A stretch of DNA of 64,000 nucleotides from a bacterium. GTDB taxonomy: Bacteria > JAAXHH01. The notes below the pieces were generated by a model that saw only the letters and a program-made list of their open reading frames with translations, searched no databases and was not told where the DNA came from. The DNA is taken from NCBI GenBank assembly GCA_965117045.1, contig OZ220749.1, positions 1,288,143 to 1,352,142 on the forward strand, in the 5' to 3' direction. Within the stretch, counting starts at the first letter, position 1. The number at the start of each line of letters is the position of its first letter. Below, piece by piece: positions 8,476-42,944 of this stretch. The translations under genes were made by a program, and so were the position numbers.

Positions 8476-9405
8476 CTAGTCCCCGCCTTTGAAGTGCGCC
8501 GCTCCGCGATCCCGCAGGAAATCCATCGCGCGGTTTAAGTCCGGAATCCCGGTTCGCCCACCGAGCCGCGTGCAACTCATGGCGGCGACGGCCGAGGCGA
8601 ATTCGGCGGTTTTTTCCAACCCCCACTGTTGCAGCAGCCCGTAAATGTATGCGCCGTGGTATACGTCGCCCGCGCCGGTCGTATCGACGACCTCCACGGG
8701 GAATGCCGGCGTGTGAAACGACCGGCCGCCTGCCAGTGTCAGACCGCCTTCCTCGCCGAGCGTGACGATCGTGACGGATGATCCGTAACCGGCCAGGGAC
8801 TTCGCGGCCGCTTTCGGATCGGCCAGGCCGGTCAGTGCTTCGGCGAATACCCGCGAAGCGATAAGGTAGTCGGTCAACCGCAGCAAATCCCCGATGTCCT
8901 GCGGCCGGGACAGGCTGTCGGCGTCCAGGACCACGGGCACGCCGGCGCCACGCGCGATCTCCCCGGCGGCCAGCGCGGCCTGACGGCCCGTGGTGTCAAG
9001 ATGCAGGTACCTGGCGGCGGCGATCATACCGGCGGGAACTTCCGATGGAGACAATTCCACAGTCGTCCCGCCGGCCATGATGGTACGCTGCCCGGTCGAT
9101 TCATCGACGAGAATCATGCTGACCGGGGTCGTTGCACCGGGCTCCACGATCAATTGGGCCGAGTCGACCCCGTACAGGTCGAATTCCTCCTTCACGGCGC
9201 GACCCGCCATGTCGTTGCCGACTTTGCCCGCAAAGGTGGTGGATACCCCCAGCCTGGCAAGCGTGACCAGCGCGGTGGAGACCATCCCGCCGCCCTGCTG
9301 GGTCGAGTCGCTCATCCAGACCTGGTCGTCCTGGTCCGGCAGGTGGGGCACGATGCCCAGGAAATCCAGGCAGGCGCATCCCAGGCCGGCTACGTCATGG
9401 GTCAT
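8476..9405 (-). CDS. PfkB-family carbohydrate kinase
   Basis: GGG N-terminal motif and VVDTTGAGDVY PfkB signature. Confidence 0.93.
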   Translation of the reverse strand: MTHDVAGLGCACLDFLGIVPHLPDQDDQVWMSDSTQQGGGMVSTALVTLARLGVSTTFAGKVGNDMAGRAVKEEFDLYGVDSAQLIVEPGATTPVSMILVDESTGQRTIMAGGTTVELSPSEVPAGMIAAARYLHLDTTGRQAALAAGEIARGAGVPVVLDADSLSRPQDIGDLLRLTDYLIASRVFAEALTGLADPKAAAKSLAGYGSSVTIVTLGEEGGLTLAGGRSFHTPAFPVEVVDTTGAGDVYHGAYIYGLLQQWGLEKTAEFASAVAAMSCTRLGGRTGIPDLNRAMDFLRDRGAAHFKGGD

Positions 9406-9509
9406 CTTCTGTTTCCTCGAATCAATCGCTCGTAAATCACCAATACGTGAAGCACCCGCTCGTTAAGCTCCCGCTCCCTGGCTATACTCCAGTCACGGGA
9501 TTGCCCATT

Positions 9510-10433
9510 TCATTTGGTCACGTGTATACCCGTCTCATCCGCTTCGACCGGCAGGGGATCCGAAATGCCGCTCTCCGCGTCCAGGCCCTCGGTGCCCAGT
9601 AGGAACCAACGGCCGCCGTGCTCGACGAGTTGGCTGGCATAGAAGCGGCCGGCCGGCGCTTCGGGCATGATCTCCCCCGTGCCGTGGATCCGGAACGGTC
9701 CCAGCGGCGAATCGCCCACCATGGCATAGTCCGTGCTCCTGAAGGGATGACCGGGAAATCTGTTCCTGAAGGAAGGCGCCAGCCAGAAATCATGGGTACA
9801 GAAAACGAGATACCAGCGGCCTTCCATGAAGTACACCTGGGGCACCTCCATTTCCTCGGTCATCCGGTCGTGTTCCGGCGGCGGGAGCGTCTCCCACCGG
9901 ATCATGTCGGTCGACTGCGCGATGCCGATGCTGCCCCGTTCAGTCACGTCCCCGTCGGTGCGCCGCGCGCAGACGTACTGGAGCACCCGGACTCCCGTGT
10001 CCAGGAGGAAGGGGTCCCGCCAGTGGGTGAGCCGCCGCTGGCCGGTCGATTCGATCTCGTAGTGGGCAGGGTCGGCCACCGAAGTGGGATTCTCGGGTAG
10101 TTTACACCAGGTTTCCAGGTCGTCGGAAACCGCCATGCCCGCGCGCTGGACGAAGGCGGTCTCGTGCTTGTGGCCGGTATAAGCCATCCAATACCGTCCA
10201 TCGTGCCGGATGACGCTGCCGGTCGCCAGGGACTTGCCGTCCCACGCGTGCGGTGGGCCCGGTTCGAGCGCCGTCCCCCGGTACTCCCAGCGCGCCAGGT
10301 CATCCGAAACGCAGTGGTCGATTCTCCAGCCGGCCTTCCGATCCAGGGGCATGGCGAGAAACCAGGCATGGACGGTCGCATCGTCGGCAAAATACCATGC
10401 ATCGCCGATGCGGTGGCCCTCGAGTCTGAACAC
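9510..10433 (-). CDS. Five-bladed beta-propeller glycoside hydrolase-like protein (GH32/GH43-like)
   Basis: HCVSDDL..W, ATGSVI, YTG, WRDPF and MEVPQ motifs. Confidence 0.78.
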   Translation of the reverse strand: MFRLEGHRIGDAWYFADDATVHAWFLAMPLDRKAGWRIDHCVSDDLARWEYRGTALEPGPPHAWDGKSLATGSVIRHDGRYWMAYTGHKHETAFVQRAGMAVSDDLETWCKLPENPTSVADPAHYEIESTGQRRLTHWRDPFLLDTGVRVLQYVCARRTDGDVTERGSIGIAQSTDMIRWETLPPPEHDRMTEEMEVPQVYFMEGRWYLVFCTHDFWLAPSFRNRFPGHPFRSTDYAMVGDSPLGPFRIHGTGEIMPEAPAGRFYASQLVEHGGRWFLLGTEGLDAESGISDPLPVEADETGIHVTK

Positions 10434-11887: not shown

Positions 11888-12982
11888 CTACCTGAACCAG
11901 TCGTAGTTGAGACCCAGTGAACGATCCTCCAGGGGCAGGTCGACGCGCACGCCGCCCTTTGCCGAGGAAAGTTTCAGGGCGATTTCCACCTCCAGGGCGA
12001 CGGCGACCCTGCGGCCTGAATTCTTGGGTTCGTCCAGTTTCCCCGCCAGGCAGTCCATCACGTCGTTCAGCGAATACACCCCGCCGTATGGGATCACGAA
12101 CTGGGGACCGGGCCAGGGCAATTCGACCCGGTAGGATCGGCCCTCCACCTCCATGACCTCCCATCGCTGCCACGCCGTAGGAAACTCGAAGGTCATCTCG
12201 CCCTTGTCTCCCTGGAGCCGCACGCCCGGCGCGCCTTTGCGGAAATGCACCACCAGGCCGCTTTCGGTCACCATCATGCCCTGGCCCTGGAACTCGTCGC
12301 TTCCCGACTCGCGGCGCGGCTCGTCGCCCGTGCCGATCACCCAGGCGGGCGGGCTGTCCAGGAAATAGGACCAGTTCTGATGCTGCGCGAAGGGACCATG
12401 GGCCTCGATGGACACCAGGTCGCCGATTGCGCCGTCGCGTATGAGTTGGCTGGCGCGGCCGAAGGACGGGTGGGTGGTGGTGATCGCGCCGCAGCTCAAG
12501 GGTACTCCGGCCTCCTCGCAGGTCCGCACCATCCGGTCCGTTTCTTCGAGGGTATGGGCCATGGGTTTCTCGGTGAAAATGCCCTTCGCGCCATGGTGTA
12601 CGGCGAGACAGGTGAGATCGGCGCGATGTTTGGTGTTCGTCGCAACGGCGACGATATCCGGCTTTTCAATGGCCAGCATATCCCCTGCGTCGTCGTAGAT
12701 GGAGACGATGCCGTACCGTTCCCGGAAGGCGCGCAACCGTTTCACATCACGGTCCGCCGCCGCGACCAGTTCGACGTCCGGACGGTCCATAAGTGCTTCG
12801 GCATAGGTCGACGGCAGGCCCTCCGTACCCGGGTTTTCGTGGTAGTGGAACCGCCGGTGGACGTTCAATTCAGGGGTCGGACGATCGATATCATCCACGT
12901 CCCACACACCCGTCCTCTCCGCGAGATCATAGAGCATCCCCATCCAGCCCAGTCCGATGAGGCCTGCGCGGTACTTTGCCAC
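11888..12982 (-). CDS. Gfo/Idh/MocA-family oxidoreductase
   Basis: IGLGWMG Rossmann motif and EKPM. Confidence 0.88.
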   Translation of the reverse strand: MAKYRAGLIGLGWMGMLYDLAERTGVWDVDDIDRPTPELNVHRRFHYHENPGTEGLPSTYAEALMDRPDVELVAAADRDVKRLRAFRERYGIVSIYDDAGDMLAIEKPDIVAVATNTKHRADLTCLAVHHGAKGIFTEKPMAHTLEETDRMVRTCEEAGVPLSCGAITTTHPSFGRASQLIRDGAIGDLVSIEAHGPFAQHQNWSYFLDSPPAWVIGTGDEPRRESGSDEFQGQGMMVTESGLVVHFRKGAPGVRLQGDKGEMTFEFPTAWQRWEVMEVEGRSYRVELPWPGPQFVIPYGGVYSLNDVMDCLAGKLDEPKNSGRRVAVALEVEIALKLSSAKGGVRVDLPLEDRSLGLNYDWFR

Positions 12983-13011
12983 GAGATTCTCCTTCTTTTG
13001 TGCTCAATCGT

Positions 13012-13077
13012 TAAAACAGCAGCGGCATAACCAAACGCTCACCCTAAAACGGCAGCGGCACATCCAGACGCTCGCCC
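13012..13077. repeat. 33-nt tandem duplication of a gene 3' end including its stop codon
   Basis: taaaacagcagcggcataaccaaacgctcaccc / taaaacggcagcggcacatccagacgctcgccc. Confidence 0.85.
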
Positions 13078-14045
13078 ATTTCCCGTACGGTACGCTGTTC
13101 AATCTCGCCGAATCGGATCCCTTCTTCCCGGTGCAGAGCCAGGCGCCGTTCCTCTATCGCGCCGGGCAGCAAGGCCTCGTCATATCCGGGCATGGGCTCG
13201 TAGGTTTCCCTTACGTCCCGAACGAAACGATCGACTTCCTTTCGAAAATCGCCTTCGGGAATCACGGTTTCGGTGTGTACGGCCAACACCATGCCGCCGT
13301 GATTTGCGCCGGGCCATCGCGCCTGCACTTCGTCCGCCTCAGGCAGCGCGGCGCCGGCCAGCGCGCATCCCATGACCGTGGCGACCGCCCCGTAACCGAT
13401 GCTCTTGAAGAAGGCGGCCGGTATGCGGGACAGGAGGTCGTCGAATTCGGGCGAATGCTGGTAATCGGCCAGGATGCGCGTGGCCACGTCCTGCACGATG
13501 GGCGGTTCGTCGCCCGCCGGAATCCCGAAACACAGCGGGGGATTGCCGAAATAGCCGATCTGGGGTTTGGGGTCCAGGTCCCTGGCGTCTCCCATGTTCC
13601 GGTATCCCTGGACCGAGAATCCTATACAGCCCGATTCCATGCACATGCGGGTGTAATGGCCTGCCGATCCGTAATGCCCGATATGGCGGGCCAGTCCCAT
13701 GCCTAATCCGGTTTCCCGGGCTTTGGCGACGGCCTTTTCCGTCGCTTCCACCATGGGCCAGTAACCGAGCGTGCCGTCGCCGTCCACGATGACGGAAGTG
13801 GGCGATTCGCCGATGACCCGCACATCCGGTCGTGGATTGTGATGCCCCTCGGCGAATGACCGCGTATAGCCGGAGGCGGCCCGGACGCCGTGGCTGCGAA
13901 CGCCACGCAGATCGGAATTAACCAGCAGGCGGCTGATGATCGAGGCATGGTGGCTGGACAGGCCCGCCTTCTCGAAACAGGCCGTCGTGAAAGCCAGCAG
14001 GGATGTTTCATCGACATGGATGTATGCTTCCGGCGGTCGATTCAT
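13044..14045 (-). CDS. Ldh_2-family (malate/L-lactate/ureidoglycolate-type) oxidoreductase
   Basis: SDLRGVRSHG, VDGDGTLG, GHYGSAGHY, GNPP; start placed at MNRPP after an SD. Confidence 0.88.
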   Translation of the reverse strand: MNRPPEAYIHVDETSLLAFTTACFEKAGLSSHHASIISRLLVNSDLRGVRSHGVRAASGYTRSFAEGHHNPRPDVRVIGESPTSVIVDGDGTLGYWPMVEATEKAVAKARETGLGMGLARHIGHYGSAGHYTRMCMESGCIGFSVQGYRNMGDARDLDPKPQIGYFGNPPLCFGIPAGDEPPIVQDVATRILADYQHSPEFDDLLSRIPAAFFKSIGYGAVATVMGCALAGAALPEADEVQARWPGANHGGMVLAVHTETVIPEGDFRKEVDRFVRDVRETYEPMPGYDEALLPGAIEERRLALHREEGIRFGEIEQRTVREMGERLDVPLPF

Positions 14046-14086
14046 CGATGGTTCCTTTGTATTTGAAATGGACAAACGGGTACGTA

Positions 14087-14812
14087 TCAGACCACCATGG
14101 GCGTCTGGAGCACGGTCAGGCCCATGTCGATGTACTTCTGCCGGTCGGAGGGATTCAGGAGCGCCAGGCTTACGGCGACGGACGTTCCTTCCATTTCCCG
14201 GGCAACGTGCTGAACGCAGTCGTCGACGGTCCGGAAAGGCGGGTTCCGGTACCGTTCAATGTCGTACATGAGGTCGTTGGGACCGAAGGTGAGGACATCG
14301 ACGCCTTCCAGGGCCAGATTCCGGCAATTGATGACGGCGTCGACCGATTCGAGTTGCAGCCACAGGACGCCGGTGTCGTTCCACCACGCCGCGTACTCGA
14401 GGCGGTCGGAACGGCCGGCGATGCCGTGGCGCGCGCTCCCGCCCCAGCTTCTTCCCCCGAACTGCGGATAGTAGAAGAAATGGACCGCCTCGCGCACGGT
14501 GGATTCCTGCCTGACTTCGGGTACGAGGATACCCGCGGGACCCAGATCCAGGTAGTTCCCGATCAGGTAGGTGTGGCGGGTATGCTTGATGCGCAGGATC
14601 ACCGGCACGCCCAACGCCTCGGCGGTAGCACAGAAGGACACGATCCGGTCCTCGCTCTGGGGGCCGTGCTGGCAGTCCACGTTGAAGAAATCGATATCGC
14701 CCTGTAGAAGATAACGTTCCAGGTCCTCCCGGCCGGAATCCATGGATACGCCCAGGCCGGTCACGATTTCGCCGCTGCGAATGCGGTGTTTCAATGAGAT
14801 TGGCTGGACCAT
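14087..14812 (-). CDS. HpcH/HpaI-family aldolase
   Basis: VDCQHGP, LDLGPAGILVP, YPQFGGRSWG, QLES, FGPNDL; start at MVQPISLK after GAGG. Confidence 0.88.
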   Translation of the reverse strand: MVQPISLKHRIRSGEIVTGLGVSMDSGREDLERYLLQGDIDFFNVDCQHGPQSEDRIVSFCATAEALGVPVILRIKHTRHTYLIGNYLDLGPAGILVPEVRQESTVREAVHFFYYPQFGGRSWGGSARHGIAGRSDRLEYAAWWNDTGVLWLQLESVDAVINCRNLALEGVDVLTFGPNDLMYDIERYRNPPFRTVDDCVQHVAREMEGTSVAVSLALLNPSDRQKYIDMGLTVLQTPMVV

Positions 14813-14835
14813 GACGGAACGCGCCCTCCTCTCCT

Positions 14836-15579
14836 TTAACATTTCGTCAGTACCTGAAGTTGCACCGGTGTGTCTACACGTATAACCGCCGAGGGATGAC
14901 GCCTCAAGGTTTGTTCGAGGAGGCGCCGGTCCGCTGCGGGTATGTGCGCCTTGTCCCACCACATGGCCCGGCACCGGTCGAACAGCGCCAGGCTATCGAA
15001 GTAATGCCGGAAAACGAAAACGATGCGCGCACCCGCCACGAGTTCTCTGCGGGCGACCGCATCGGCCACCACCCGGTCCGCGAAATGAAAGTCGACGTAT
15101 TCACGGGCCAGCGTGGCCACCAGGTTCACCTCATGCGCGACCTGGCAGTACACCTGCTGCCTCGCGTTCCGGCGATTACCCAGGCTGGCCGGGAAATACG
15201 GACGGATGTCGACGACCCGGCCTCCGGGCTTCAGTACGCGACAGGCTTCGTGAAGGGCATGCCCCATGCCCTCTTGTTGCACTCATCACAACGACCACGA
15301 GAACAGGGCCAGGTCGAAACTCCGGTCGCGAAAGGGCAGGCGGGACGCGTCGGCCACGGCGAAGCGCGCGATGCCGTCCAACCGCTTTCGGGCATGGGCG
15401 CGTCCGATGTCGTCCCCGGCCTGGTCGACCCCGGCGATCGAATCGATCCATCCCCTGATCCGGTTCGACAACCGGCCGTCGCCGCAGCCGATGTCGAGGA
15501 CGCGCGCACCGTCAAACGGCACGTGCCGCCGGAGTATCCGCGTTTCCCGCCGTTCCGGGTCTACTCGAACACCTTTCAT
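14836..15579 (-). CDS. Class I SAM-dependent methyltransferase, 247 aa, with two consecutive in-frame UGA codons (putative Sec98-Sec99); joins track ORFs 15286..15579 and 14836..15282
   Basis: VLDIGCGDG, ADASRLPFRDRSFDLALFSWSL-TGA-TGA-VQQEGMGHALHEACRVLKPGG in a single frame; the fold is complete only if both UGAs are read through; hairpin follows. Confidence 0.8.
15253..15273 (-). promoter_or_regulatory. Putative bacterial SECIS hairpin
   Basis: mRNA GAGGGCAUG-GGG-CAUGCCCUU (8 Watson-Crick pairs plus G-U, G-rich loop), starting 9 nt after the second UGA. Confidence 0.65.
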
Positions 15580-15657
15580 GGTGCACTCCCGCCTTTCTTA
15601 CGTCACGCCCACTGCTAATGATACCTGGCCGGGTTGGATATCAGCCCGGGCCGGATA

Positions 15658-16662
15658 TCAGGCCGGTCCGGCCACCTCTTCGATCTCCACCCAGCCGCCG
15701 GTTTCCTTCGACCGCTCTATGGCCAGTCCCGTGAGGTACAGCCCCGCGGCCATCCTGCCGTCGGTGCGGTTCGGCGTACCCTTTTCCACGGCGTCCAGGA
15801 AATCGGCGACACTCTCCGCCTCGCCGGGCCAACCGCCGACCACCGGCCTCGCGGGCTCAACGTGGATCGTTTCGCCCTCCGGATCGGACTTGCTGCGCAG
15901 TTTTATCGTGTTGCGAAAATAGTCGACGAGCAGGTCGCCCTCGTCGCCGGCCACGTCGATCGCGGTCTCCAGCGTATCGACCGAATCGATGTTCAGGTGG
16001 ATCGTGCCCCAGAGGCCGCCGTAGTCGAATTGGACCAGGCTGTGGAACTGTCGCCGGCCCGCCTGACCGTGGCCGTCCATGACGAGTACCCGATCGGGCG
16101 AACGGCCGATGATGCTGTTCAGCCCGTCCACGTACCAGGGTCCGAGGTGGTGGGCGAGGCACAGGTCCGGGCCGCCGAATCCCGCCCAGTTGCTCCGCAG
16201 TTTCAGGTGGACGGTCTGCGGCGCGCCGACCGCGCCCGTCCGCAACAGTTCCGCGGCGCGGTGGATGACGGAAGCATAGCCGATTTCGAGGTCGCCGTGG
16301 GTGACCTGGCCGGCTTCGATCAGCCGCGCAAGCATCCTTCGTATGCCGCCGGGGTGGCCGGCGAGCGGTGGTTCATAGTAGGCGGCGACCCCCGCGTCGA
16401 GGACGGCGTCCATGGCCTCCTCGTGGATGGCGTCGGGTATGGCCATCATGACGGCGTCGAGTTCGGGGCCGTCCAGCAATTCCTCGAAGCCACCGCAGAC
16501 CTCCACATCCGGTCCCAGCTCCTCGCGGATGCGTTCCTTGGACGCCTCGCTGAACGCCGCGGCGGACACGATCACCACCCGGTCGTGTTGCCGCAGGGCG
16601 GGTACGAAGGCTATGCGGGACCAACCGCCGTATCCGATCAGTCCAACGCGAATGTCGTTCAT
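15658..16662 (-). CDS. Gfo/Idh/MocA-family oxidoreductase
   Basis: IGYGGWS Rossmann motif and family architecture; the EKP motif is altered to EPP. Confidence 0.85.
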   Translation of the reverse strand: MNDIRVGLIGYGGWSRIAFVPALRQHDRVVIVSAAAFSEASKERIREELGPDVEVCGGFEELLDGPELDAVMMAIPDAIHEEAMDAVLDAGVAAYYEPPLAGHPGGIRRMLARLIEAGQVTHGDLEIGYASVIHRAAELLRTGAVGAPQTVHLKLRSNWAGFGGPDLCLAHHLGPWYVDGLNSIIGRSPDRVLVMDGHGQAGRRQFHSLVQFDYGGLWGTIHLNIDSVDTLETAIDVAGDEGDLLVDYFRNTIKLRSKSDPEGETIHVEPARPVVGGWPGEAESVADFLDAVEKGTPNRTDGRMAAGLYLTGLAIERSKETGGWVEIEEVAGPA

Positions 16663-21176: not shown

Positions 21177-23424
21177 CTACTTCAACATCTCGACGATATC
21201 CGCATGCCCGGCTTTCTCCGCCCGGGCTAGCGGGGTCGCCCATTCCGCGCCGCCGCCCCGGGGGTCCGCGCCACGCTCCAGCAGGAACGCCGCAAGGTCG
21301 CGGTGTCCCCACCGCGCGGCCCATCCCAGCGGGGTGGAACGCCACTCGTCATCCACGGCCTCGATGGAAGCGCCCCGGTCCAGCAGCAGGGCGGATTTCT
21401 CCACGTCGCCGATCGCTGCCAGTTTATGCAGGTAGGTGACGCCGTGCCAGTTCGCGTTGTTGGGATCGGCGCCATGGTCGAAAAACAGGTTCAGCATGTC
21501 GAGGATATCGTCGTTGGGGGTGAGGGCGCGCCCGTCCAGGTGCCAGCCCTTGCGCCGCCGGAACGCGTACCCCATGTAGTTGTTGGCGTACCAGGGCCGG
21601 TTCAGTTCCGCCCCCGCCCGGATCAACATTTCGATGATCTCCCTGCGCGCGAAGCCCGCCGCCATGCAAAGCACCCCGTAGTCGCCACCATAGTTGGCCA
21701 GGCCGGGGGTCCGCGCCGAGGAGTTCGCCGACCACGGGGATGTTGTCCAATAGCACGTACATGCTGATGTCGGCCGTCGCCCCGTGTTGGTACAGCAGGT
21801 TGATCATCTCCTCGTTCTTTCCCTTGCCGAGGGCCTGGGAGAGGGGTACGCCGCTGGATTCCACCGGGGCGTTGGGATCGGCGTCGTGATCGAGCAGCAG
21901 TTTAGCCGTTTCCAGGTGATTGCCGGCCACGGCTTCGTACAGCGCGTGTCCCCGGGGCGCGTTGTGCTCCGGGGCGTTGGGATCGGCGCCGTGGTCCAGC
22001 AGGAGTTGCACGATGTCGGTGTATCCCTGTGACGCCGCACTGAAGAGCGGAGAGTGTCCGCAGGTATCCTGGTCGTTGGCCAGGGCGCGGTTCCGCGACA
22101 GGAGACTCCTCACGCGCCGTTCGTCCCCCAGGGCGCACGCGACCGTCATGCTGTAATCCGCCCCTCTTGCGATCAGGTATCCGGTCAGCAGCGGATCAAG
22201 GCCTCCCCGTGACTTGCGCGCCCGAAAAACAGCCACGTGCAACGGTTTGCAACCGTCCCACCGGACCGGATCCGGATCGGCTCCCTTGTCCAGCAGCAGG
22301 GCCGTCATTTCCAGGTTGTGTGCTACCACGGCCTCGTGGAGGGGACGGTTGCCGCGTTCGTCCGAGGCGTTGATCAACTCGGGAGAAGCCTCGAACAACG
22401 CCCGGGCTTCCTCCAGGTCGCCCCGCCGGACCACTTCGCAGGCACGCTCGCCCACGGGCGGCGCACTGTACCTGGACGCGATGGCGTCCGTCAGGAGTCC
22501 GGCGATCTCGTCGCATCCGCGGTCCCTGGCCCGTTCGAGCGGGGGTACGTGATAGTCCAGTCCCGACGCCGACGAAGGATCCGCACCGTGGTCGAGCAAC
22601 ACGCGGACCGCCTCCGTATGCCCTTCCCGGACGGCGAAGTGCAGGGGCTGGTAATACGCCCAGTTGCAGTTGGCCAGGCCGGGGTCTTCCCGCAGCAGCG
22701 ACCTGATCCGGGCAAGATCTCCTTCCACCGCGGCCAGCAGCATATCCCAGACCTTGTTCGGCTCGCCATCCATGAAATGCCCTTGCTCGCTCTTGAAATC
22801 GGGTCGAATCCATTTCATCACTCGGTCTCCGAAAGTTTCATCTGCAGAAGGTGCGTAACCGTTAAGCTCGCTTGACAACGTGCGGAGCAGGCTCGGCTTC
22901 AACTTGCCCCTTGCTTCGAACAGCCTTTTGCGCACCGTTCCCGCATTCAGTCCCATGAAGTTTGCGATTTCGGACGCGGAATAGTCTCCAATATACCGCA
23001 GGACCGTCACTTCCCTTAACTTTTCCGGCAAAGCCTCCACCGCACTGCGGACTTTTTCGTCTATGTCCCTGCGCGCTACCTGGTCCAGGGGGCTTTCCAC
23101 CGGCGCCTCGATGTCATCCTCCATGGGAACGAAACGGCGGCTGTCGCCTCGCTTGAACCGGAAACACTGCCATTGAATGATCCGCCGCAGCCAGGCCGGG
23201 AACAGATCCGGCTGTCGCAGCGATTCGATGTTCTGCCAGGCGGCGATAAATCCTTCCTGCGCGGCATCTTCCGCCAGGTGACGTTCTCCCAGCAACCCCA
23301 GTGCGTAACCGAAGGCCATGTCCTGGAAGTCGGTCACCACCTTGCCGAAAGCTACGCTGCGATCCGTATGTGGTAAAGATTGATCGGCTGAAACCTGGAT
23401 GTTGTGTCTGAGGTCGTCTGTCAT
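21177..23424 (-). pseudogene. ECF sigma factor fused to ankyrin repeats (~748 aa), interrupted by one extra base in a C5 run (plus-strand G5, 21705-21709)
   Basis: Sigma2 AEDAAQEGFIAAW..FPAWL and sigma4 LPEKLREV..EIANFMG..TVRKRLFEAR, then ankyrin repeats; deleting one C joins ADP to GLANYGGDYGVLCMAAG of ORF 21177..21674. Confidence 0.82.
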
Positions 23425-41894: not shown

Positions 41895-42944
41895 TCAGCC
41901 GATGTGCACCTTCTCGCCGGTCTTCGCGCTCTCGTACATGGCGTCGAGCAGTTGCATGAACCGGTAGGCGTCGTTCGCGTTCACATCGGGCGCTACGCGG
42001 CCGGCGACCGCCCGCGCGAAGTGCTCGACTTCGTGGAAGAAGGGCAGTCCTTCTTCCGGCGGTTCCGAATGGGGCACGTCGGATTCGTCCTCGATCTGCC
42101 GCGCGGTAAAAACCCCCTCCTCCGTCTGCCACAGTTGACCGTGGGAATAGGCGCCTTCACTCCCGTACACCTCCACCACGGTGGGCGTATCGCAGTGCAC
42201 CCAGCGGGAACAGTCGATCTGGATCGTCTTGCCTCCTTCGAATCCGGCTAGCCCCGAGAAATAGTCTTCGGCCGGTCCTTCCGGCCCATGATAGATGGCC
42301 TCGACGACGTGCTTGGCGGCAAAGGCCCACTGGGGATCCGGACAGCCCATCCACCACCAGGCCAGGTCCAGCTCGTGCGACGCGTGCTGGCCCAGCGCTC
42401 CGCCCTTCTGGCCAAACACGTGGGTCCAGCCCTGGGGATCGTCCAATGGCGCCCGGTAGTTGTATTTCAAAAAGATGCGGGCGTGGTACGGCTCGCCGAT
42501 GCGCCCGCGGCTTAACGCGACGCGCGTCCTGCGATTCCCCGGATCGTGCCGCATGAAATAGCAGAACTGCATCGTTACTCCGGCGCGCTCGGCCGCTTCC
42601 TTGAAGGTCAGGATGTGGTCGGCTTGCGTGGCGTGCGGTTTCTGCACCAGCACGTGCTTGCCTGCGGCGATCGCATCGAGGACCATGGGATAACGGGCGG
42701 GCGGATTCACCGCCAGGAGGACGGCTTCCACTTCCTTGTCGGCCAGCAGGTCCTGGTAGGGTCCGTACAGGCGCGGGATTTCCTCCTCACGGCCCACCCG
42801 GTTCCGCCGCTCCTCGAGCAGGTCGCCTATCGCGACGACGTCGAGCAGCGAACTGGCACAGGCCGAACGAATGGCGGCATGGCCCGCCCCTCCACAGCCG
42901 ACTACGCCGAACCCTATCGCTTTCTCTTTTTGCATCTTCTTCAC
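41895..42944 (-). CDS. Gfo/Idh/MocA-family oxidoreductase
   Basis: VGCGGAG, GKHVLVQKP, GGAL..HELD. Confidence 0.9.
   Translation of the reverse strand: MKKMQKEKAIGFGVVGCGGAGHAAIRSACASSLLDVVAIGDLLEERRNRVGREEEIPRLYGPYQDLLADKEVEAVLLAVNPPARYPMVLDAIAAGKHVLVQKPHATQADHILTFKEAAERAGVTMQFCYFMRHDPGNRRTRVALSRGRIGEPYHARIFLKYNYRAPLDDPQGWTHVFGQKGGALGQHASHELDLAWWWMGCPDPQWAFAAKHVVEAIYHGPEGPAEDYFSGLAGFEGGKTIQIDCSRWVHCDTPTVVEVYGSEGAYSHGQLWQTEEGVFTARQIEDESDVPHSEPPEEGLPFFHEVEHFARAVAGRVAPDVNANDAYRFMQLLDAMYESAKTGEKVHIG

Follow-up and report, generated by a model that had tools for sequence, protein, structure and literature searches.

A conserved methyltransferase gene with two adjacent in-frame UGA codons and one downstream hairpin is predicted to encode a Sec-Sec selenoprotein

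The closest described counterparts of the gene reported here are bacterial selenoproteins with two selenocysteine (Sec) codons close together, proteins in which Sec stands beside Cys, and class I methyltransferases that carry Sec. The gene lies on the minus strand of a 64,000-nt stretch of bacterial DNA (hereafter the window; assembly GCA_965117045.1, contig OZ220749.1, positions 1,288,143 to 1,352,142, lineage JAAXHH01), and it very probably encodes a single 247-aa class I S-adenosylmethionine (SAM)-dependent methyltransferase with adjacent residues Sec98-Sec99, both specified by UGA through one selenocysteine insertion sequence (SECIS). In the UxxU selenoproteins (the NF041115 metal-binding protein, an FmdB-family regulator and a Prx-like oxidoreductase), as here, two UGAs fall within a few codons, presumably share one SECIS just downstream and have Cys variants at the same positions, according to the available part of the review PMC13188914; here, however, the UGAs are directly adjacent (UU) and the fold is that of a class I methyltransferase. 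The CU selenoproteins (the MerB-like SaoL, HgcA, SaoC, MbdU and KCU-star) likewise have adjacent chalcogen residues and are often truncated at the UGA in databases, as described in the accessible portions of the same review and of a preprint by Haft and Gwadz; the authors tie them to metal or organometallic chemistry. As far as these portions go, the CU proteins have one Sec beside a Cys, unrelated folds and often conserved neighbourhoods, whereas the present family has Sec-Sec (plus Sec-Cys, Cys-Sec and Cys-Cys forms) and no conserved neighbourhood.

The same class I fold combined with Sec is found in NF008823 (UxxG), NF045649, NF047649, ArsM/DUF2284 and ArsM/AhpD, several of which have two or three Sec. 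Their Sec sites, unlike the pair considered here, lie elsewhere and are not adjacent, and the present protein falls far under the cut-offs of the NCBIfam selenoprotein methyltransferase models: it scored 30.3 bits against 380 for MduS (NF045649, a methyltransferase-domain double selenoprotein), 46.1 against 460 for MTase/UXPK-star (NF047649), 27.7 against 263 for ArsM (NF008823), and 35.8 against 575 and 44.9 against 510 for the fusions NF041536 and NF041537. No model of NCBIfam release 20 was above its cut-off, and the same held for the Sec, Cys-Cys and His-His forms; the best was the DVU_1556 methyltransferase NF045667 (52.1 bits against 155, Rossmann part only). An uncharacterised sister family (for example P0033, P0047 and P0057, annotated just as SAM-dependent or UbiE-like methyltransferases) has the same architecture end to end, with FNSL-HH-V opposite SWSL-UU-V; it differs in an invariant His-His in place of the Sec/Cys pair and in having no UGA. 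Plant phosphoethanolamine N-methyltransferases (5wp5, 5wp4), an O-methyltransferase (5gm1) and a methyltransferase (3bus) share the Rossmann SAM-binding domain, but the N-terminal domain alone aligns and none has Cys-Cys or Sec-Sec at the pair; 5gm1 has Cys-His at that position in the alignment, and 3bus_A has SLHH, with the register shifted by a 3-residue gap.

Neither a UU motif nor a matching methyltransferase is among the 119 families in Table 1 of PMC13188914, a 2026 review. An earlier note on this DNA, made from the letters without database searches, had known of no described family, and this agrees with the lack of any family with adjacent Sec-Sec in that table. No paper on a bacterial Sec-Sec pair was found in the openly searchable literature, where survey supplements may list further candidates; 'methyltransferase', 'tandem', 'adjacent' and 'two Sec' do not occur in the BSepDB or deep-Sep texts, and the relevant passages in the accessible portions of the GOS paper, Lobanov et al. 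2007, SelCysML, PMC1242214 and PMC8318568 do not deal with this family. What is described below is a widespread, multi-phylum family with a predicted adjacent Sec-Sec on one SECIS and with no counterpart in the inventories examined.

Layout of the gene and conservation of the UGA pair

The minus-strand frame 15579-14836 is interrupted solely by TGA-TGA at 15288-15283. An ATG at 15579 starts 97 codons whose last residues are ...FDLALFSWSL (...RSFDLALFSWSL); codon 98 is TGA at 15288-15286 and codon 99 is TGA at 15285-15283, after which 148 further codons, starting VQQEGMGHALHEACRVLKPGG..., continue in the same frame to a TAA at 14838-14836. The features of the locus are listed here.

14836-15579, minus strand: read-through coding sequence of 247 codons plus TAA for a class I SAM methyltransferase with predicted Sec98-Sec99; from the frame, Methyltransf_11 over residues 28-123 and orthologues colinear over residues 1-246
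15586-15590, minus strand: putative Shine-Dalgarno-like GGGAG, 6 nt upstream of the ATG; from reading the letters
15475-15501, minus strand: SAM-binding motif I, VLDIGCGDG, residues 27-35; G31, G33 and G35-R36 are kept in at least 90% of 121 family sequences
15286-15288, minus strand: UGA codon 98, predicted to be read as Sec; TGA in 32/32 phylum orthologues, TGT or TGC in Cys-Sec and Cys-Cys forms
15283-15285, minus strand: UGA codon 99, predicted to be read as Sec; TGA in 32/32 phylum orthologues, TGC or TGT in Sec-Cys and Cys-Cys forms
15253-15273, minus strand: predicted SECIS hairpin, 9-bp stem 15273-15265/15261-15253, GGG loop 15264-15262, minimum free energy (MFE) -12.8 kcal/mol; from fixed offset, synonymous suppression, covariation and the bacterial SECIS (bSECIS) criteria
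15220-15240, minus strand: strand-5 motif RVLKPGG, residues 114-120; G120 is kept in at least 90% of 121 family sequences
14839-15207, minus strand: C-terminal domain, residues 125-247, confined to this family and the His-His sister family; no Pfam family on the 143-aa fragments, no PDB sequence match, end-to-end alignment with the His-His family

The Pfam Methyltransf_11 match over residues 28-123 of the read-through product (E 2e-18) crosses both UGAs, so that neither half is a whole domain, and the product is above the Pfam gathering thresholds for PF08241 (67.3 bits against 21.2) and PF13649 (64.4 against 27). The earlier note had described two open reading frames (ORFs) in one frame, split only by TGA-TGA, with neither half a complete methyltransferase; reading of the frame and the straddling domain match agree with it on both points. 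A promoter and terminator scan gave nothing above shuffled background. The same note had placed a second Sec gene in the window, and here it was not borne out: a crude scan for open flanks, a third-codon-position GC (GC3) signature and a hairpin gave nothing convincing. The sole match of that scan in the window, at 41897 on the minus strand, resembles an ordinary stop.

Conservation of the pair was examined in other genomes. A six-frame search of 61 genomes gave 32 colinear matches, the window's own included, all with two TGA and at 37-91% identity; paralogous methyltransferases of the same genomes are stop-free. After the loci had been cut out and aligned, TGA-TGA stood at the same aligned codons in 32/32 orthologues of the window's phylum, as the earlier note had predicted, and the carriers are 32 of the 33 species genomes examined of that phylum. 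One genome per species was also scanned with an exact pattern (TG[A/C/T]-TG[A/C/T], 12 nt and a 15-nt hairpin core). Of the 97 stretches obtained, 80 were listed as loci; among them were 73 homologous methyltransferases (63 Sec-Sec, 5 Sec-Cys and 5 Cys-Sec) and 7 chance matches, and the family signature is ...SWSL, the pair, then x-x-x-x-G-M-[V/G]-H-A-L. By record titles 45 of these 73 loci are from Chloroflexota; the remaining labels are Latescibacterota, Gemmatimonadota, Actinomycetota (both Cys-Sec), Acidobacteriota and Armatimonadota, and several are without a phylum name. The same pattern in metagenome contigs gave at least 120 stretches, and among the 80 loci listed 73 passed a strict family filter (62 Sec-Sec, 6 Sec-Cys and 5 Cys-Sec), those outside it being two more Sec-Cys forms, one degraded copy and four chance matches.

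Since these pattern scans demand the hairpin, hairpin-independent profile searches were added on evenly drawn genomes, 301 of one Chloroflexota class and 401 of the phylum. The class sample held 16 carriers among its 301 genomes, with 17 matches (16 with two TGA and one with a single TGA) and three further weak matches to the Rossmann part only, without the motif. Carriers in the phylum sample numbered 27 of 401, with 30 matches, 19 with two TGA, 11 with one and none without. Four matches are common to both samples; over the two, the 47 matches comprise 35 with two TGA, 12 with one and none without, and the 26 loci new in the phylum sample are 15 Sec-Sec, 10 Sec-Cys and one Cys-Sec. Over 122 loci, not deduplicated between searches, the terminators were TAA in 52, TGA in 39 and TAG in 31, and the internal pair codons were only TGA or Cys codons. 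The use of TGA as a true terminator in the family excludes a code in which TGA is always sense, and the restriction of internal stops to TGA, set against three types of terminator, argues against a mere tandem terminator. Comparison across genomes shows codons 98 and 99 to be both UGA and, on that evidence, translated, and by the same comparison the UGA-UGA gene is neither broken nor decayed. Some Chloroflexota genomes (G232, G519, G592 and G663) have two family copies, a few kb apart or on separate contigs; both are Sec-Sec in one of them (G232:C7:5907-6602 and 9371-9970), and a single TGA is present in both copies of another (G519:C16:16740-17435 and 21690-22331).

A profile search of 1.84 billion representatives returned 41 clusters at E <= 1e-30. 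Among the best 150 representatives, 59 are fragments of about 98 residues that end exactly ahead of the pair (...SWSL) and 37 are full-length SWSL-CC proteins, both of which the earlier note had led one to expect; one more ends in ...SWSLC, one has SWSL-WW, four have SL-HH, seven are C-terminal fragments that begin at a Met inside the hairpin, and 41 are other methyltransferases. The SWSL-WW protein, P0137 (245 aa), is either a true Trp-Trp form or the product of a gene caller that read TGA-TGA as Trp. In NCBI records the gene appears as two, one of 97 aa ('class I SAM-dependent methyltransferase') and one of 143 aa ('hypothetical protein'). A FastTree tree was built from 121 distinct family proteins, of which 83 are Sec-Sec, 28 Cys-Cys and 5 each Sec-Cys and Cys-Sec. 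On it the Sec forms are interleaved with the Cys forms, and at least 15 state changes are needed (shuffled mean 35, as low in 0/200 shuffles); the Sec forms came partly from the hairpin-dependent scan, and FastTree supports are local only. The mixtures of TGA and Cys codons anticipated in the earlier note were found as Sec-Cys and Cys-Sec forms in the genome, metagenome and Chloroflexota searches alike.

The hairpin as candidate SECIS and the selenocysteine machinery

A perfect hairpin, GAGGGCAUG-GGG-CAUGCCCUU, with 9 bp and a 3-nt loop, is present at 15273-15253. It begins 9 nt past the second UGA, and its loop is 21 nt from the first UGA and 18 nt from the second, in agreement with the earlier note. 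At random TGA sites of the genome, 346 of 30000 (1.15%) precede a hairpin of at least 9 bp with SECIS-like geometry, and a 71-nt fold is no better than shuffles (z = -0.35). The hairpin alone is thus only moderately unusual, and it is the comparative data, not the single sequence, that lift the case far above chance.

The offset of the hairpin is identical in 75/75 orthologues (32 + 17 + 26) from searches that did not require it. Synonymous change was analysed in 31 phylum orthologues, L050 being excluded for a frame break, and Gly104 GGC, Gly106 GGG, His107 CAT and Ala108 GCC showed none; outside the hairpin, where codon entropy averages 1.05 bits, 3/97 comparably conserved degenerate columns are invariant, two of these being the UGAs. 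Covariation was assessed in an alignment of 54 sequences, of which the class sample supplied 17 and the phylum sample 26; the other 11 were picked for diversity among the 32 phylum orthologues. Standard pairs fill 86.4% of stem cells, a share that falls to 28-54% once the 3′ arm is displaced by 1-3 columns. Changes on both sides occur at 6 of the 9 pairs, in 19 cells (shuffle mean 3.4, equalled in 0/500 shuffles), and the covariation score is 0.179 against 0.121 (again equalled in 0/500), so that the covarying hairpin expected in the earlier note is present. Compensated stems include AGCAUG/CAUGCU, GGCGU/ACGCC and AGUGUC/GACACU; in the third, the amino acids encoded change as well. Apical loops are either triloops (GUN or GGN) or pentaloops (CGUG[C/A] and GGUCG). 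The available part of PMC13188914 gives the bSECIS criteria as a loop of 3-9 nt, G in the first two loop positions, a distance of 16-37 nt from the UGA and an MFE of -7.5 kcal/mol or lower; all four properties are found in 52 of the 54 sequences, and the remaining two depart from them in energy alone (-7.4 and -6.9). By these comparative measures the hairpin is under selection as RNA.

The forms with Cys bear on the same point. In the Cys-Cys proteins, known here as protein sequences only, the stretch corresponding to the hairpin is less constrained, GM[V/G]HAL giving way to roughly x-M-x-x-A-L, which fits an RNA constraint confined to forms with UGA. In the Sec-Cys forms the lone UGA comes first in the pair, at 20-21 nt from the loop, and in the Cys-Sec forms it comes second, at 17-18 nt; the place of the hairpin is unchanged in both. 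Each spacing is therefore used singly in nature as well as jointly, and this offers the strongest argument at hand that both UGAs of a Sec-Sec gene can be decoded.

The window and the sel genes are on a single 3.83-Mb contig. Matches to selB (327 bits, cut-off 242), selA (488 bits) and selD (245 bits) are all above their cut-offs, and a tRNA-Sec (anticodon UCA, ARAGORN) is located about 100 nt downstream of the selB match (G000:C1:1709142-1711281); a check for selA, selB, selC and selD proposed in the earlier note was answered by selA, selB, selD and this tRNA. The tRNA-Sec is the only UCA-anticodon tRNA of the genome; the anticodon of tRNA-Trp is the usual CCA. Genetic codes 4 and 25 were rejected, as TGA terminates many family members and tRNA-Trp is normal. 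The selD gene, at C1:613938-614912, is free of in-frame stops and hence does not encode a selenoprotein in this genome. With the formate dehydrogenase alpha model, no in-frame-TGA match was obtained in the genome (one weak stop-free match is at C1:1178555-1179367), so there is no second local SECIS for comparison. Across the window's phylum selB was found in 31 of 33 genomes, including 25/25 of high quality, the two without it being 85% and 87% complete. It was also found in 4/4 tested carriers from other phyla. Of the 27 Chloroflexota carriers 25 have it, compared with 299 of all 401 genomes sampled, a tally that includes four genomes flagged unpublished, none of them a carrier. The proposal of the earlier note, that both UGAs encode Sec through one SECIS, is supported as a prediction by the conservation of the UGAs, the Cys replacements, the covariation of the hairpin and the sel genes, and none of the outcomes that the note had named as counting against it (homologues with neither Cys nor conserved UGA at the pair, halves as independent genes, sense codons in raw reads, or a genome lacking selB or selC) occurred.

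Proposed decoding, acceptor site and rival explanations

In the mechanism proposed here, the 7-9 bp hairpin with its G-[G/U]-N apical loop would serve as a bacterial SECIS and would bring SelB-GTP-Sec-tRNA(Sec) to the ribosome at UGA98. One translocation later a second SelB complex on the same hairpin would decode UGA99, and the product would carry a vicinal Sec-Sec in SWSL-UU-V, right after strand 4 of the Rossmann fold.

Residues conserved in at least 90% of the 121 family sequences are D7, E12, G31, G33, G35-R36-L37, D52, A61, F88-D89, S96-L97-[U/C]98-[U/C]99, A108-L109 and G120. The hallmarks of class I methyltransferases, a glycine-rich motif I (G31, G33, G35) and the acidic D52 after strand 2, are present, and by its sequence the product is a class I SAM-dependent methyltransferase with methyl transfer as the predicted activity. 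The nearest solved structures (5wp5, 5wp4, 5gm1 and 3bus; E 1e-18 to 7e-17) match the Rossmann part only, at profile positions of about 15-140, and the C-terminal half has no PDB relative by sequence. An hhalign comparison with the His-His family gave a probability of 99.9 and an E of 8e-33 over 217 columns, with CC opposite HH (FNSL-HH-V / SWSL-CC-V). Members of that family in alignment A6 are P0033, P0034, P0036, P0038, P0042, P0047, P0057, P0067 and P0106. In the class I fold, the segment after strand 4 (motif IV) borders the SAM methyl group and the acceptor. His140/His141 in the SLHH motif of the sugar O-methyltransferase RebM have reportedly been proposed as acid-base residues, and His132 of the Plasmodium phosphoethanolamine methyltransferase is said to have been proposed as catalytic. 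From the location of motif IV and the alignment to His-His relatives, we infer that the Sec/Cys pair belongs to the acceptor site, as a catalytic or ligand-binding element; whether His-His, Cys-Cys or Sec-Sec, the residues make up a ligand or acid-base pair. Our tentative preference, with the odds leaning against it, is for a thiophilic, soft acceptor kept beside the SAM methyl group by the two selenols. Such an acceptor could be a metal(loid), for example As, Sb, Se, Te or Hg, a thiol-reactive compound or an organometallic one; for the metalloid or thiol methylation suggested in the earlier note the analysis gave no support.

Other explanations of the UGA pair were weighed against its translation as Sec-Sec. 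If the gene were split, pieces of 97 and 143 residues would be made separately and would associate, the tandem stop acting as a strong terminator and the hairpin serving coupling or regulation. Gene callers and public annotation do list two genes (97 aa and 143 aa), and an ATG (Met105) is always inside the hairpin; however, the frame and spacing of the pieces never drift in the orthologues examined, the internal stops are TGA alone where the real terminators are of all three kinds, and relatives have Cys codons at one or both stops. Moreover, codon 100 is GTG, GTA, GTT, GTC, ATG, ATC, ATT or ATA and therefore not a conserved start, and no Shine-Dalgarno sequence was seen at a usable distance upstream of Met105; a split gene is considered very improbable. 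Read-through without Sec, in which near-cognate Trp or Cys or a changed code would serve and the hairpin would merely slow the ribosome, is judged improbable. It finds a possible trace in the one SWSL-WW representative, P0137, but TGA is a normal terminator in 39/122 family loci, tRNA-Trp(CCA) is present with tRNA-Sec as the sole UCA tRNA, the replacements in relatives are Cys, the classic partner of Sec, the hairpin fits the SECIS model down to the G-[G/U] in its loop, and selB accompanies the gene. A pseudogene or assembly error, that is, two nonsense changes in a decaying methyltransferase, would have a parallel in four to five degraded or frame-broken copies found elsewhere (L108, L084, L164, L237 and L050, which is at the same place as L106). 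The defects are additional stops, loss of part of the C-terminus or a break of frame near the N-terminus, and these copies may themselves be pseudogenes or assembly errors. For the gene of the window this explanation is refuted in practice, on comparative grounds, by the same two codons in 32/33 phylum genomes and many other phyla, by protein conservation on both flanks and by the same letters in independent assemblies.

The role of the pair is a separate question, for the same translation would also fit a Sec-Sec that acts as a redox switch, through a reversible vicinal diselenide in an eight-membered ring, or as a base or nucleophile on an organic acceptor. This alternative we hold to be evenly poised. 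In its favour are the His-His at this position in the sister family, the acid-base role reportedly proposed for the RebM pair, and the genus neighbours, which are sugar and keto-acid enzymes (GFO/IDH/MocA, HpcH aldolase and Ldh_2); most known selenoproteins, moreover, are redox proteins according to the available part of PMC13188914. On the other hand, vicinal Cys-Sec is known mostly from metal or organometal proteins (SaoL, HgcA, SaoC and MbdU) in Table 1 of that review and the accessible portions of the Haft and Gwadz preprint, and the neighbourhood is not conserved beyond the genus and survives without the gene in one genome, G012. The redox-switch and acid-base roles together are at least as likely as the guess of a soft acceptor.

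Several observations weigh against the reading of the gene as a Sec-Sec methyltransferase or against parts of it. The case for Sec insertion itself is comparative throughout. Sec insertion in E. coli has an efficiency of 30-40% per UGA, as given in the available part of PMC4513850, and two successive SelB deliveries off one hairpin would be inefficient. A single-sequence hairpin of this kind is not rare, being found at about 1% of random TGA sites, and a search of 15150-15350 against Rfam gave no match at E <= 10. The high background of selB in the Chloroflexota sample (299/401) makes co-occurrence a weak test that lends weak support, and in two Chloroflexota carriers, G534 and G600, selB was not found at E <= 1e-60. 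The gene is cleanly absent from G012, a genome of the same genus that is 99% complete and has selB, and degraded copies exist, as listed above. With regard to the acceptor site, the position of the pair relative to SAM comes entirely from alignment, and the HMMER alignment to 3bus_A inserts a 3-residue gap that moves the pair off its His-His. With regard to function, the most frequent Pfam family in the 126 ORFs flanking the gene in other phyla appeared only 4 times, and no conserved partner was found.

Gene neighbourhood, habitat and significance

In the window, 11888-16662 on the minus strand reads GFO/IDH/MocA, methyltransferase, HpcH aldolase, Ldh_2 and GFO/IDH/MocA, with gaps of 22-78 nt around the methyltransferase. 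The order GFO, methyltransferase, HpcH, Ldh_2 is kept in 26/26 other loci of the genus (though L045 stops short of Ldh_2) and in 0/5 loci of the phylum's other genera (L046-L050). The GFO/HpcH neighbourhood persists in G012 despite the missing methyltransferase; at that locus (L317, G012:C2:712315-716037) the GFO and HpcH genes are 74 nt apart, and a DUF481 gene is missing too.

Of 24 listed public runs, 23 contain at least part of the stretch at window positions 14700-15700, and one run holds at least half of its words. Runs with a named origin are nearly all sponge metagenomes, with one from coral, and the organism appears to be sponge-associated. Records of the Chloroflexota relatives are titled groundwater, sediment and similar. 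Independent assembly was checked in the assembled contigs of four runs. The UGA pair is spanned by one DNA contig from a different study (X3, record 2) and by a 96-nt contig from an RNA library (X8, record 19); as an RNA library can hold DNA, the latter shows presence in an independent assembly, not expression. Other parts of the gene are without coverage in RNA libraries, to which we attach no meaning. Among the matches listed, beyond which there are 26 more, contigs of other assemblies show no difference at 15283-15288.

The family would be an addition to the bacterial selenoproteome that is missed by current annotation, which splits the gene in two, and it suggests an annotation rule, by which a fragment ending in ...SWSL, followed by TGA-TGA and a GGCAUGG-N-GCAUGCC hairpin, is one gene. 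It would also be a natural case of adjacent UGAs decoded from one SECIS, and a system in which SelB spacing and back-to-back decoding could be studied; the Sec-Cys and Cys-Sec variants, with their hairpin unmoved, suggest that loop distances of 18 and 21 nt both work. Across the sister families, the series His-His, Cys-Cys and Sec-Sec points to a ligand or catalytic pair that can be tuned, and a vicinal diselenol or diselenide beside the SAM site, if true, would be new enzyme chemistry. The fullest version of the proposal is that this is the first natural enzyme family with an encoded vicinal Sec-Sec, one SECIS for two UGAs, and selenols forming an acceptor site at which a soft metal(loid) or chalcogen (As, Sb, Se, Te or Hg) is methylated; as a whole it is doubtful. 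If it were true, it would mean an unrecognised route of metalloid methylation in a sponge-associated phylum, in Chloroflexota and in other phyla.

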